Source: a virus
Lineage: Duplodnaviria > Heunggongvirae > Uroviricota > Caudoviricetes
IMG/VR virus record: IMGVR_UViG_2609459856_000007
Span: 28,436-92,435 of that record
Length of the DNA: 64,000 nt
Strand: one strand, 5' to 3'
The translations under genes and the position numbers were made by a program. The notes beneath the pieces were generated by a model. That model did not search any database. It saw nothing but the letters and a program-made list of their open reading frames with translations, and was not told where the DNA came from. This document shows positions 1-64,000 of this stretch, piece by piece (the first letter of the stretch is position 1; each line of letters begins with the position of its first letter).

Positions 1-239
1 GTCATACCCGAGTTTTCGTAAATCTTCATGACCTTTTCACGAGCCTTTGCAGTAGTCTCTAATGACGTAGCTATCTTATCAAAATCACCCATCGTCATAT
101 TGGACAGCACCAGATTGATGATGTCTGCCTTTGACAGTTTTATGCTGCGTTCACGCAGTCGATTCTGAAAGGTCTCTAGTTTATCGTTTGCTTTTTCGGT
201 TAACTGAACCTGGCAGTGTATAGCGCGTTTCTCGCTCAT
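1..239 (-). CDS. hypothetical protein, partial (start in window, runs off left edge); start 2 nt after helicase stop
   Basis: Reverse-strand ATG at 237-239; translation MSEKRAIHCQVQLTEKANDKLETF... open to position 1. Confidence 0.4.
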   Translation of the reverse strand, partial: MSEKRAIHCQVQLTEKANDKLETFQNRLRERSIKLSKADIINLVLSNMTMGDFDKIATSLETTAKAREKVMKIYENSGM

Positions 240-241
240 GC

Positions 242-1801
242 TTACTCTCTATTTAAAACAGTGAAATCGAATGTGCTGCCAACCGGCAAGACCCCCTCGG
301 CAAACCCAGGCGTCGTGTCGATAATGTGTTTCCGCTCATATGAATGCGACATGAGGTATTTGTTGCTCACGTCGATGAAGTCGGTAATAAAGCACACGTT
401 AGCCTGATTCTTTTTGGCTCGAAGACCGCGACCCACACGTTGACGCATCTCCACTTCGGCTTTGCCGCCACCACCCAGAATCACCGCGCCTACGCTTGGA
501 ACGTCGACACCAACATCCAGAATGGTTGAACCAATGAGAACATCTATCTTGCCTGCCGCCAGACTATTAAGTTTTGCTTGTCGGGTAGTCTGGTTTGATT
601 CTCCGTAGATGAAATCGACCTTGAGGCCACTCTCTTTCATCATTTCCATCAAGATCTGACCATGACGCTTCAGACGAACCAATGTCATACAGTTCAGACC
701 GTGACTCTTGTACATTAGCGCTTCACGCACAATAGCTTCGTTGCGGCCCAGATTATAGACGATGCCTAACTGATAGGCTTTCTGGTAAGCCGTGCTCATT
801 CCAACCCGAAAATTCAGGTGTTTTGAAGCAAGTTCGGCTCTAATCCGCGCCTCATCTGGAGTGTACGCGATTTTATGATATAAAAAGTATGGTTTCGCTA
901 AAATACCTCTGTCGATCAAATATTTCTCCGTTACTTTTATCTCGATGCGACCCGCAACGGCCATGAGACGCATATTTGCTTCAGTCGAGTCCTTCATGAA
1001 CGGCGTTGCTGTCAGCGCCAGACGGTAGTCGGCATTGATGCACAACCGGGCGATGTCGTAGAAGTTAGAACCAGATGATTCGTGTGCCTCTTCCAGAATC
1101 AGCAGAGAAACGCTGGACAGGAAGCGTTTAACCAGTTCCCGGCGCTTCAGGTGGTACTGTTTTTTCTCCGGTGATGCGTCGCGCGGTGGCTCTTCGAGAA
1201 AACTGGCCAGGGTCTGCACCGTGGCAACGTTGATATGGCGCGAGACCTGGAACTCACCCGATCCAATCACCCCAACTCTCTGACCTTTCAGCCACGGCTC
1301 GCCATTCTCCGCGCGGTAGTCGATGGATTTCTGGAAGTTCTCTGCCATCTGGAACATCAGAACCGATCGCGTGGTTAAAAACAGCGTCATACGACCAATG
1401 CGAGCAGCAGCCTTACACGCTACGTTCGATTTACCGCCACCCGTCGCAATCTGGGCAATCATCATCCCTTCGCGCACCAGTGTTTCCACTGTCTGATCCT
1501 GATACGCGTAGTCCGGGTTATACGGGAATGGGTTAACCACCGGATTCGGCTTACCCAGCGCGGGAGCTTTTTCCTTGCGAACATGCACGCATTTGATGCC
1601 AGCTTTCAGAAGATTGGTCGCAACTGGCTTCGCAAACCCAGCCGGGAACGCGTTTTTACTCCAGTTGAACATCGTGCTGGTCCCTTTCCAGTCACCAGCC
1701 TCCACTTCATAGCTCAACATCTCCTGAACAAGCCGTTTCACGTTGTCATCAGCGCCAGAAATCAGCGCATTGACTGCATTTGATACAATCCGAACAGTCA
1801 T
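242..1801 (-). CDS. superfamily 2 DEAD/DEAH-box DNA helicase
   Basis: Motif I GGGKS, motif II LEEAH, motif III TATP, motif VI QRVGRGLR; RBS GGAAAGAGG upstream of ATG. Confidence 0.85.
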   Translation of the reverse strand: MTVRIVSNAVNALISGADDNVKRLVQEMLSYEVEAGDWKGTSTMFNWSKNAFPAGFAKPVATNLLKAGIKCVHVRKEKAPALGKPNPVVNPFPYNPDYAYQDQTVETLVREGMMIAQIATGGGKSNVACKAAARIGRMTLFLTTRSVLMFQMAENFQKSIDYRAENGEPWLKGQRVGVIGSGEFQVSRHINVATVQTLASFLEEPPRDASPEKKQYHLKRRELVKRFLSSVSLLILEEAHESSGSNFYDIARLCINADYRLALTATPFMKDSTEANMRLMAVAGRIEIKVTEKYLIDRGILAKPYFLYHKIAYTPDEARIRAELASKHLNFRVGMSTAYQKAYQLGIVYNLGRNEAIVREALMYKSHGLNCMTLVRLKRHGQILMEMMKESGLKVDFIYGESNQTTRQAKLNSLAAGKIDVLIGSTILDVGVDVPSVGAVILGGGGKAEVEMRQRVGRGLRAKKNQANVCFITDFIDVSNKYLMSHSYERKHIIDTTPGFAEGVLPVGSTFDFTVLNRE

Positions 1802-1846
1802 AAACCTCTTTCCTTCGTGCCTTTTGTATGGTAATTGGCTATTATG

Positions 1847-62800: not shown

Positions 62801-63347
62801 CTCCGGAATTATGCACTGTAATATTGCTACCGGTTACACCGGAACCACCTGTCCCACCTACATCATCACCTCCGTATATACTTCTGTAATTATCAACTAT
62901 AATATCATCCCCGCTTAACCCTGCACCTCCGCTACTTCCTGAGCCACCAAGACCATTACCCCCATATACATTTCTGTAATTGTTTATAGATATTTTGTTG
63001 CCACTAACAGCAATTCCACCATTATATCCATCTCCTCCCCAAACACTACCATTATTATTTAGCGTAAAGTTTTCACCGTAGACACCTGCACCACCGATTG
63101 ATGTATTGCTTGTTCCTCCTTTGATGTTAATACTGCTTTCAACAGATAGTATATTTTGAGTATAACTTGTTTTATACGGCACGCTGATATTAAGCGCCGC
63201 GTTTCCATCAACACCTGTAATACTCCTGGTTATACTTTCAGGTATACCATTACCATTCAGTTGTATTGTTTGCGCACCAGAAAAATGAGACTGCACAGAA
63301 TAAAGTATACTGACCAGAAATTGTAAAATTCGTATATTCTTATTCAT
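59850..63347 (-). CDS. autotransporter adhesin (type Va)
   Basis: Signal peptide MNKNIRILQFLVSILYSVQSHFSGAQT; Gly/Asn-rich beta-helical passenger repeats; C-terminal beta-barrel ending ...SVEYRF. Confidence 0.85.
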   Translation of the reverse strand: MNKNIRILQFLVSILYSVQSHFSGAQTIQLNGNGIPESITRSITGVDGNAALNISVPYKTSYTQNILSVESSINIKGGTSNTSIGGAGVYGENFTLNNNGSVWGGDGYNGGIAVSGNKISINNYRNVYGGNGLGGSGSSGGAGLSGDDIIVDNYRSIYGGDDVGGTGGSGVTGSNITVHNSGGILGGNGVNGGDGINGSNLFITNDNMISGGYGIKQGGDAISGNQITLNNNGIVQGGYGPDGGCSVYGEDIHINNHGNLSGLYNSQKDAYNTSMIFSGGYNSLDIYSDSVINGDIKLASIPVNGTNELIIKNINNATAINGGLMIGNGSSVYLSGKNSIFNGNISIDEDASMNLSVGNANVHANTITLKSDSWLNIDTSIKNWTQDYYTLLSSDTGISIADNSHIVQYNVLLTEGAESYVYTSLNDDDNKLISMLRWNNTKGMGYGTFNIEKDATLNIGVSLSDNLSPLLYDGWDGKSLTKSGNGTLILSATNNYTGNTEVKSGVLILAAPDALGRTEYLYLSRGAELDMNGYPQTISKLLTAAGSVLNIHGGSLILNNGGESAGTIAGDGSLNINGGMLDITGNNRNFSGVFTVNKGAHLAVSTADNLGTAFVDNYGTLTLNSTSAWQLTNNISGYGNVRKTGAGALNISDNAKWTGMTDIIQGTVILGNADSPVMLGSNQVIVEEQGKLSGFGGVAGNLSNSGIVDLTTYMPGNILTVGGNYTGRNGLILLQTETGGDNSKTDRLVIKGNASGRTRVAVTQAGGTGAETLNGIEVIHVSGNADNAEFIQTERITAGAYDYILKRGQGINSTNWYLISRKDIPVPQPEAVPESHDNNLRPEAGSYVASIAAANNLFVTNLYERQGQELYISHMTGEENEAGIWMYNKGKHNRWRDNSSQLRTRGNSYVVLIGGDIAQWSLNGTDRWHTGMMAGYGHNNNSTNALSTGYHSEGRMNGYTAGLYATWYANDETHNGSYLDSWLQYSWFDNHINGERLPAESWKSKGFTVSLEAGYSWKAGEFTDNYKGSHEWYVQPQLQVVRMNVKSDKYHESNGTSIENTGNGNILTRLGARTWLTSKNGKNTRYAVPFRPFVEAHWLHNSRVFGTSMNGVSIYQDGARDIGEINGGVVGMITPEVAFRADAGIQLGEHGYHNTSAMLSVEYRF

Positions 63348-63593
63348 ACTGTTTTTTCTTTAGTGATGCATTTTTTATCAACCACACAAGCACATTATTT
63401 CATTGATACTAATCACATCAGGATGAATGTTTTTTCTCAATAGAAATAAGTGTCTTTATTCCTTACCAATTTATTCTGGTTATTCCTCTTATCCAGACGT
63501 CTCGTGATACTCCCTGTATTTATTATAGAGTATATATATGTACTGCGTTTAAATCATGAAGACGACAACCTGTTTTACATAAATTATTCCTAA

Positions 63594-64000
63594 GGAAGGT
63601 GCGAACAAGTTCCTAATATGAGATCATCATATTCATCCGGAGCGCATCCCAGAGGGACATCATGAGCCATCAACTCACCTTCGCCGATAGTGAATTCAGC
63701 ACTAAGCGCCGTCAGACCCGAAAAGAGATTTTCCTCTCCCGCATGGAGCAGATTCTGCCATGGCAGAATATGACCGCTGTCATCGAGCCGTTTTATCCCA
63801 AGGCGGGCAATGGCCGACGGCCCTATCCGCTGGAGACCATGCTGCGTATTCACTGCATGCAGCATTGGTACAACCTGAGCGACGGTGCCATGGAAGATGC
63901 CCTGTACGAAATCGCCTCCATGCGCCTGTTTGCCCGATTATCCCTGGATAGCGCCCTGCCGGATCGCACCACCATCATGAATTTCCGCCACCTGCTCGAG
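63594..64000 (+). mobile_element. IS5: IS5 left end (partial, continues beyond window)
   Basis: Terminal repeat GGAAGGTGCGAACAAGTTCC; flanking CTAA; transposase ORF follows. Confidence 0.85.
63662..64000 (+). CDS. insH: IS5 transposase InsH, N-terminal part (partial)
   Basis: [37 protein letters not shown]...[10 protein letters not shown] matches InsH. Confidence 0.85.

Follow-up and report, generated by a model that had tools for sequence, protein, structure and literature searches.

Anatomy of a recurrent SSU5-P1 joint in Escherichia coli: a probable plasmid descended from two phage-plasmid families

The 64,000-nucleotide stretch analyzed here (hereafter the window) is the terminal 64 kb of the draft contig JNMN01000021.1 (assembly GCA_000700365.1, 92,435 bp), filed as the Caudoviricetes record IMGVR_UViG_2609459856_000007, of which it covers positions 28,436-92,435; window position 64,000 is the contig end, and a further 28.4 kb of the contig lies on the left side. 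Megablast of the window against PLSDB, the INPHARED phages, and the complete RefSeq E. coli genomes split it cleanly into a decayed backbone of the SSU5/pHCM2-like phage-plasmids (1-31,991), a stretch of phage P1 DNA (31,984-54,081), and a right-hand cargo region (54,081-64,000), the genes being called with Pfam and PHROG profiles and with NC_005856 (P1) and JQ965645 (SSU5) as references. The three-part mosaic with breakpoints at 31.98, 50.1, and 54.1 kb that the initial annotation had described is thus present as described, and the GC profile (0.41 at 49-52 kb versus 0.58 at 55-57 kb) supports the mosaic structure on the right-hand side. Rfam and tRNA scans of the window returned one tRNA-Asn and nothing else. 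The placement on this contig comes from an exact-protein look-up, in which locus L008 and window positions 21,999-42,385 agree at 100% identity.

The joint between the two phage-plasmid families occupies positions 31,983-31,991 within P1 ppp. In a three-way alignment, the SSU5-like match, identical to plasmid pYLPI6a (NZ_CP074043.1) until 10 nt past the stop codon of the cobS-like gene, ends at 31,991, and the P1 match starts at 31,983-31,989, equivalent to P1 coordinate ~81,050; dnaE, which comes next in pYLPI6a, is absent at its expected place past cobS, where the P1 block stands instead. The joint reads GGTTAATCGTGCGTAA followed immediately by CTGGCTAATG or, with the P1 side given at greater length, GGTTAATCGTGCGTAA followed by CTGGCTAATGAATGG. 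At the crossover the two parents have only TAA in common (3 nt of exact microhomology, with 8/10 nt similar), and the alignment contained no insertion sequence (IS) and no long repeat at the joint.

PLSDB and the complete RefSeq E. coli genomes contain no record that spans this joint, and its exact 36-mer was likewise not found in the GTDB-representative genomes, the JGI metagenomes, and IMG/VR, collections that do not hold the carrier strains. The exact 36-mer is, however, contained in six further datasets (loci L039 and L041-L045), namely one NCBI assembly (GCA_053275535.1 contig 21, 56 kb) and five Logan assemblies built from raw reads (SRR1186779, SRR25057515, SRR18468218, ERR10686898, and SRR6060207). 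Compared with the window, these six copies show 2-9 substitutions over 7-20 kb. Structural differences exist as well: one copy has a mer operon, and in two, L039 among them, the left flank changes at 20,617. The exact 516-aa product of the truncated CobT-like gene upstream of the joint occurs in 12 contigs, and in all seven of those displayed the order is CobT', CobS-like, ppp', pmgQ, pmgS. Because the same 36-mer recurs in six independently assembled datasets, the joint is real, and the assembly artefact suggested by the initial annotation is excluded; the joint marks a near-clonal, repeatedly sampled lineage, for which the truncated CobT-like product, seen with the joint in every displayed contig (7 of 12), is a marker. 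In the copy with the mer operon (L042, from SRR25057515), merRTPCADE (positions 1-6,056 of that locus) stands upstream of the point matching window position 25,450, in place of the PhoH-region sequence of the source.

The rival account, in which an assembler misjoined an SSU5-like and a P1-derived plasmid resident in the same cell, could draw on the short-read draft nature of the source with a contig ending in an IS, on the lack of the junction in all complete-plasmid collections, and on the frequent co-occurrence of SSU5-like and P1-like elements in E. coli stated in a passage of a preprint (bioRxiv 10.1101/2025.09.12.675607). We regard it as exceedingly improbable, because the same 36-mer was recovered both in a second NCBI assembly and in the five Logan assemblies, for which raw reads were put together by a different assembler, because the 3 nt common at the joint are too few for a de Bruijn or overlap mis-join, and because the lineage-specific cobT deletion accompanies the junction in every displayed contig.

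A second account of the joint invokes IS1, which, residing in ppp of the P1-derived parent, would have generated a replicative cointegrate with the SSU5-like plasmid and would later have been lost by a microhomology deletion. In GCA_054663835.1 (BAAFNE010000087.1, locus L063 2160-2927), an IS1 does reside in ppp of a P1-like element, flanked by the 8-bp target duplication TGAATAAC; this duplication overlaps the break site (window ~31,985-31,992), and the right end of the IS1 lies 2-5 nt from the break. In addition, an IS1 marks the limit of the pLAO33 P1 segment (window position 32,906), and the parental plasmids are rich in IS1. The proximity may be either a coincidence of AT-rich targets or a hint of an IS1-mediated origin. 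AT-rich sites favor IS1 insertion and illegitimate joins alike, and the coincidence was roughly estimated at 5-10%. Moreover, the mark of an IS- or transposon-borne cointegrate, an IS copy with a target duplication, is not found at the joint, where zero IS1 nucleotides are left, so that an extra deletion event would be required, no relative with an IS1 on the SSU5 side was seen, and the known ppp IS1 belongs to an unrelated assembly. The IS1 route is therefore considered unlikely.

A perfectly reciprocal exchange would have fused Ppp residues 1-94 in frame to the SSU5 DnaE, with CCTGATGGCAACGTGAATAAAGGATGTTTCGGCTCTC as the predicted reciprocal joint. Among the best 120 of 804 matches (E <= 1e-10) to such a Ppp-DnaE fusion, none extended beyond the Ppp part at high identity, which is not decisive, since gene prediction may place the start of such a gene at that of dnaE. 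Two further patterns around the break were rejected. Seven of 10 metagenome or Logan contigs encoding the 128-aa truncated Ppp begin 0-2 nt from its ATG, with a 4-nt indel or an N-gap in two others, as if the junction were a hot spot of contig breakage. A control look-up four codons downstream (32,011) also gave 11 contigs starting exactly there; since the shifted-codon control yields the same pile-up, the pattern reflects the selection inherent in searching a very large collection for an exact product. As a methodological observation, an exact-product look-up of a 5'-truncated protein mimics a breakpoint hot spot (31,997-32,011; loci L009-L017 and L029-L038), which a shifted-codon control exposes. 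Likewise rejected was a mosaic boundary in ppp common with lambdoid prophages, for there were only 13 chromosomal matches to 31,850-32,450, and all P1-like matches to that interval begin at the junction merely because the query changes there.

The left-hand backbone is 98-100% identical, in pieces, to pYLPI6a and to the SSU5-like contigs L018-L026, its nearest relatives being E. coli-lineage plasmids; phage SSU5 proper covers just 27% of positions 1-25,000, at 89% identity. The gene order that it has in common with E. coli SSU5/pHCM2-like phage-plasmids and their decayed derivatives, such as pYLPI6a and pLR-46_1 (NZ_AP027538.1), is helicase, ParB, head, tail fibre, toxin-antitoxin/ParA, GIY-YIG, ligase, tRNA-Asn, integrase, cobT, and cobS. 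Unlike these plasmids, the window has no terminase, tail module, or DnaB-like helicase/primase, its cobT is truncated, and P1 DNA follows cobS.

These losses have left scars. Behind genes for a DEAD/DEAH helicase (minus strand, 242-1801) and for two proteins with a ParB_N domain (plus strand, 1866-2564 and 2531-3232), all three assigned by Pfam, the terminase scar (4120-5260, plus strand) comprises a 305-aa fusion open reading frame (ORF; 4120-5037) with the joint at 4998-5005, and a ~256-nt 3' remnant of the large terminase gene. Relative to the canonical SSU5-like contig L018, 2.1 kb is gone between a 296-aa gene and the portal gene, with ATTA microhomology at the scar; the deletion took out an 88-aa gene, a 213-aa gene, possibly that of the small terminase subunit, and ~75% of the 418-aa large terminase. 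The 305-aa fusion protein is known from the source contig alone, and thus the deletion is private to this isolate. The SSU5-type head genes that follow on the plus strand, encoding portal (5294-6868), scaffold (6891-7787), and major head protein (7814-8689), match phrog_145, phrog_206, and phrog_212 (E 1e-55 to 1e-140) and are intact, with 99.7% DNA identity to the canonical contigs. The tail-module scar (8764-10,252, plus strand) joins a truncated Big_2 gene (8764-9090), within which the match to L018 ends at 9085, to a C-terminal fragment of a J-like tail-tip gene (9002-10,252); the PHROG matches there are restricted to C-terminal parts of J/tail-fibre profiles, and the tail genes of pYLPI6a (locus L028, 12,438-17,633), namely those for the tail tube, tape measure, and minor tail proteins, have no counterpart in the window. 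A tail fibre protein of 1129 aa (10,388-13,777, plus strand), which matches PHROG tail-fibre families and Pfam Phage_fiber_2, Gp34_trimer, and Peptidase_S74, follows the scar.

A third scar lies at 17,827-18,401 (plus strand), where an ORF (17,859-18,401) retains a Toprim fragment (Pfam Toprim_2). Measured against two references, the window has lost the gene of a DnaB-like helicase along with the 5' end of that for the primase; it connects positions 28,272 and 31,035 of pYLPI6a (L028) and positions 12,797 and 10,037 of pLR-46_1 (L060). This deletion was observed in the present contig. The CobT-like gene (29,100-30,650, plus strand; 516 aa) carries an N-terminal or internal deletion, matching only positions 220-728 of a PHROG profile of 729, so that ~220 N-terminal profile positions are missing, with a 580-nt gap relative to pYLPI6a. 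The gene for the CobS-like AAA ATPase (30,746-31,981, plus strand) is the final SSU5 gene ahead of the junction. Between these landmarks lie a GNAT toxin gene (14,520-15,041, minus strand), paired in relatives with a DUF1778 antitoxin gene according to Pfam and the annotation of the pYLPI6a homologue; a gene for a ParA-like ATPase (15,638-16,306; phrog_164, E = 4e-50) with a 119-aa partner (16,306-16,665); and, on the plus strand, genes for an ATP-dependent DNA ligase (21,714-23,036), tRNA-Asn with the anticodon GTT (24,606-24,680; part of the SSU5-like backbone and conserved in pLR-46_1), a PhoH-like protein (24,790-25,653), and a tyrosine recombinase (26,936-28,039).

In near-identical relatives, larger and nested deletions have removed the head genes as well. 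GCA_053275535.1 contig 24 has window position 4198 joined to 9183, and GCA_965259995.1 has 2269 joined to 9560. These nested deletions of the head and packaging module (loci L019 and L020) show stepwise erosion within one lineage.

An SSU5-like helicase/ParB block in which the terminase is cut by IS5 and followed by dmsABC-ettA cargo was also observed in plasmids of 231-239 kb (pLR-46_1, 231 kb, loci L025 and L060; locus L021) and in one 4.93-Mb, chromosome-sized contig (L027, GCA_964267295.1). The IS5-flanked dmsABC-ettA cargo is present on the P1-derived plasmid pCRST035_1 as well; since SSU5-like backbones have it in common with the P1-derived plasmid family, traffic between both families is recurrent.

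The main part of the P1 DNA (31,984-49,929, plus strand) is collinear with P1 81,050-94,800 and then P1 1-3,350, with identities of 94-99% over 31,983-34,792, 36,443-37,802, 38,630-46,589, and 46,590-49,929, which agrees with the "about 18 kb" of near-canonical P1 in the initial annotation. The gene order is ppp', pmgQ, pmgS, humD, phd, doc, pdcB, lpa, pacA, pacB, c1, coi, loxP, cra, cre, c8, ref, mat. By BLAST to P1, ppp' (31,999-32,385), phd (39,834-40,055), and an intact doc (40,055-40,435) were placed on the plus strand, followed there by intact ORFs for lpa (41,779-42,231), pacA (42,318-43,511), and pacB (43,511-44,995); the pac site (42,511-42,697) inside pacA conserves every TGATC(A/G) hexamer. 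The c1 gene (45,020-45,871, minus strand) is an intact ORF of 283 aa, loxP (46,573-46,606) is a perfect 34-mer, cre (47,017-48,048, plus strand; 343 aa) is intact, and ref (48,657-49,217) and mat (49,379-50,047) follow on the plus strand. The reported absence of a terminase consequently applies to the left module, from which the gene was deleted, and not to the window, as pacA and pacB constitute the terminase of P1.

The view that P1 DNA ends at 50.1 kb was not borne out. Past mat, a variable cassette (49,929-51,238, minus strand) with a DUF2971 gene (50,145-51,185; Pfam) occupies the place of P1 res/mod, and P1 DNA then resumes with lxc, ulx, and 2.1 kb of the 3' part of darB (51,238-54,081, minus strand), 98% identical to P1 9,750-12,594. 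The arrangement mat-DUF2971-lxc occurs in 85 PLSDB records, and the same locus holds res/mod in P1, RelA/SpoT in SJ46 and pLR-28_1, and SIR2 or GNAT in other P1-like plasmids, so that this swap site looks like a hot spot of defence genes. In the window, ulx is shortened to 112 aa and darB is frameshifted into two ORFs (51,957-53,324 and 53,315-54,106), the homologue of the darB fragment being annotated in RefSeq as a helicase pseudogene without its N-terminus. An IS21 reading of the ORFs at 51,957-54,106 was rejected, since Pfam gave no match and, at 98% identity, their DNA belongs to the 3' part of P1 darB; these ORFs are not an IS. An ISKpn26 fragment at 63,590-64,000, the last 411 nt, is the only IS5-family sequence in the window and a typical short-read contig break.

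The cargo proper was inserted into darB. The insert (54,081-57,604, minus strand) carries cydB (54,964-55,974) and cydA (55,974-57,374), both identified by Pfam (Cyt_bd_oxida_I and Cyt_bd_oxida_II), with a DUF2474 gene and a scrap of a collagenase-like gene, and is followed by a second, 269-nt scrap of darB (57,604-57,872, equal to P1 14,169-14,437); it is because darB sequence flanks the cyd segment on either side that cydAB is placed inside this gene. The joint between darB' and cyd occurs in 28 PLSDB records. Farther right lie a Phd/YefM-RelE/ParE toxin-antitoxin pair (58,455-58,990, plus strand; Pfam), pseudogene scraps (within 58,455-63,347; from RefSeq annotation of homologues), and the gene for an autotransporter of 1165 aa (59,850-63,347, minus strand; Pfam and RefSeq annotation of homologues). 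An identical autotransporter adjoins CbtA/CbeA and yicS/nlpA-like chromosomal genes in GCA_035825495.1 (L052), and this chromosomal context makes a chromosomal origin of the right-flank cargo genes probable.

The closest counterpart of the whole P1-derived side is pSW071614_contig_3 (NZ_JBRNHF010000003.1), a complete circular plasmid of 109 kb with P1 repA, parA, and parB, MobI(A/C), and bcs, dms, and GGDEF/EAL cargo. The window is collinear with it and 99.89-99.96% identical over 31,989-41,962, 44,172-49,479, and 49,474-64,000, with the same DUF2971 cassette, cydAB in darB, toxin-antitoxin pair, autotransporter, and ISKpn26. In this plasmid, however, ppp is intact and runs through the break site of the window. 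Over the shared part it differs only in having lost 2.2 kb (lpa'-pacA-pacB') and gained an IS26/TnAs1-tet(A) insertion of 11.5 kb, neither of which applies to the window. The stretch with lpa, pacA, pacB, and the pac site that is intact in the hybrid (41,962-44,172) is exactly the one deleted in pSW071614_contig_3. To the same group of P1-derived cargo plasmids belong pLAO33 (NZ_OP242262.1), pCRST035_1 (NZ_AP045806.1), p20170403CC-1 (NZ_AP025206.2), and pLR-28_1; unlike all of these, the window has its P1 DNA cut in ppp and joined to SSU5-like DNA. The cyd/autotransporter flank, taken initially as anomalous chromosome-like DNA, is accordingly standard cargo of a widespread clade of P1-derived plasmids (28 PLSDB records with the darB'-cyd joint, 85 with mat-DUF2971-lxc; 99.9% identity to pSW071614_contig_3). 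The junctions at 50.1 and 54.1 kb thus represent the conserved architecture of a known family, whereas that at 31.98 kb remains unusual.

These comparisons also bear on an alternative placement of the chromosome-like genes, in a composite prophage or island integrated into the chromosome. A 4.93-Mb contig from a different genome does contain an SSU5-like block, the same autotransporter has a chromosomal location in GCA_035825495.1, and integrated P1-like prophages are known according to a passage of PMC10879196. Nevertheless, the best matches of every part of the window are plasmids, the cyd/autotransporter block being 99.9% identical on many plasmids of roughly 74-109 kb; a sibling hybrid continues beyond the window into the plasmid cargo ISKpn26-bcs; and neither the window nor the adjoining 5.9 kb on its left side contains a core chromosomal gene. 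An integrated element is thus highly improbable.

With P1 (NC_005856), SJ46, and RCS47, the window has 22 kb in common that are collinear at 94-99% identity, with ImmC (c1, coi), loxP-cre, phd-doc, lpa, pacAB and the pac site, ref, mat, lxc, ulx, and the 3' end of darB among the shared features. Unlike these phages, it lacks the P1 replication, partition, head, tail, and lysis genes, has only truncated forms of ppp and darB, and carries another cassette in place of res/mod. The P1 homology of the window is confined to P1 81,050-94,800, 1-3,350, and 9,750-12,594 and the 269-nt scrap, with no P1 head, tail, baseplate, or lysis gene within the window. Measured against functional P1-like phages (Punavirus), the c1/coi immunity and loxP-cre are present and the structural and lysis set is absent from the window; measured against functional SSU5-like phages, the head module is present and the terminase and tail genes are absent. 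As the structural genes of neither type are complete, the element is not a functional phage-plasmid of either.

It could still be supposed that SSU5 head genes and P1 packaging and immunity genes together make up a viable new virus, the portal, scaffold, capsid, and tail-fibre genes on the one side and pacAB, the pac site, lpa, and c1 on the other being intact. However, the SSU5 terminase is deleted and the tail module is a scar, sibling copies (those joined from 4198 to 9183 and from 2269 to 9560) have no head genes either, the window has no P1 head, tail, or lysis genes, and the P1 parent type is itself defective. P1 PacAB, moreover, is not known to feed SSU5-type portals, which counts further against a functional chimera, and we judge such a virus to be very improbable.

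The anatomy of the window, the joint sequence and its presence in other datasets, the types to which the two parents belong, and the deletions were all observed directly. On this basis we consider it likely that the window is part of a real E. coli plasmid, no longer a phage, that arose by a single illegitimate, microhomology-level recombination between an SSU5/pHCM2-like and a P1-derived cargo plasmid. Both parts of the earlier suggestion of a recombinant or degraded element are supported. In the predicted course of events, the first parent would have been an E. coli SSU5/pHCM2-like phage-plasmid, broken in the intergenic region between the cobS-like gene and dnaE. The second, a P1-derived cargo plasmid like pSW071614, pLAO33, or pCRST035_1 that was defective even then, would have broken within ppp and would beforehand have carried cydAB in darB, the toxin-antitoxin pair, the autotransporter, and IS elements. 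With both parents co-resident in one E. coli cell, an illegitimate break-and-join at the level of microhomology would have produced the hybrid. After that, the hybrid would have been kept as a plasmid and disseminated as a near-clonal lineage while still shedding phage genes.

Maintenance as a plasmid, with the replicon or replicons located outside the window, would be in accord with the plasmid-life functions encoded in the window, that is, ParA-like and ParB-like genes, three toxin-antitoxin pairs, Cre-loxP, the tyrosine recombinase, and C1 immunity. The repA of pYLPI6a (labelled IncFIB by MOB-suite/PLSDB) is at pYLPI6a position 1, and the collinearity of the two makes it probable that the SSU5 repA of the hybrid lies outside the contig, a few kb past its left end. 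P1 repA/oriR and parAB/parS are not in the window, and P1 repA/parAB may also be present in the element. A sibling hybrid contig continues to the right of the window end into ISKpn26-bcsC-bcsB-bcsA, 100% identical to pCRST035_1, and since it runs on into this P1-plasmid cargo, at least 42 kb of the P1-derived parent is present; a cointegrate fits this extent better than a small insertion, without being proved by it. We infer that the element is unable to form virions by itself and that the retained P1 genes act in plasmid and host roles, such as dimer resolution by Cre-loxP, addiction by Phd-Doc, and immunity against incoming P1-like phages by C1/Coi/Lxc.

Several points weigh against this origin by a single recombination in a plasmid that is no longer a phage. 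The hybrid has no closed sequence and is known from draft data, and it is missing from the PLSDB, complete RefSeq E. coli, GTDB-representative, JGI metagenome, and IMG/VR collections. The missing phage genes could in principle sit elsewhere on the replicon, although the scars are exactly at their expected places. Epidemiological links may exist between some of the six datasets, SRR1186779 possibly coming from the same study as the source, and the IS1 insertion 2-5 nt from the break in another P1-like element makes an IS-mediated origin a less likely alternative.

We may speculate further that the retained P1 segment is a selected "hitch-hiking kit" on an SSU5-type plasmid, with the pac site, pacAB, and lpa for packaging, loxP-cre for re-circularization, and C1/Coi/Lxc for immunity, although we hold this to be a rather doubtful proposal. 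If it were true, the host would be immune to homoimmune P1-like phages, whereas a heteroimmune P1-like helper would package the hybrid from its own pac site into P1 heads, with high-frequency transduction, and the hybrid would be a plasmid acting as a phage satellite of P1.

Both its origin and its decay have precedents. Passages of Pfeifer and Rocha (2024, PMC10879196) describe the decay of P1-like phage-plasmids to plasmids that are rich in antibiotic resistance genes, no longer phages, and often mobilisable, and the window has the features of such P1-derived defective cargo plasmids, namely a subset of the P1 core genes, the loss of lysis and tail genes, and acquired cargo with an IS fragment, its collinear relative pSW071614_contig_3 having MobI(A/C) in addition. 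A passage of Ilchenko et al. (2026, tyPPing, PMC12977533) expects fusions of "any combination of P-Ps with other P-Ps", with the plasmid life style kept and lysis impaired. The hybrid matches this expectation as worded there and differs in that its joint is not IS-borne and is documented in draft data only. An SSU5::P1 hybrid lineage is named neither in these passages of PMC10879196 and PMC12977533 nor in the texts covered by keyword checks of related literature, and none is found among complete plasmids. The element is a plasmid-ised phage-plasmid derivative or cointegrate of an already known and expected sort, not a new class.

The finding reveals neither a new mechanism nor a new class of element. 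It carries a warning, in that hybrids of this kind will be wrongly assigned to the "P1-like" or "SSU5-like" phage-plasmids by typing tools and by surveillance based on replicons or markers. It provides a concrete, repeatedly observed case in which two phage-plasmid families, SSU5 and P1, were fused and then eroded to an ordinary cargo plasmid, the erosion being traceable stepwise, from the joint and the cobT deletion common to the lineage to the private, nested deletions of the terminase and head genes, and it supports the view that phage-plasmids give rise to new plasmids and act as bridges of gene flow.

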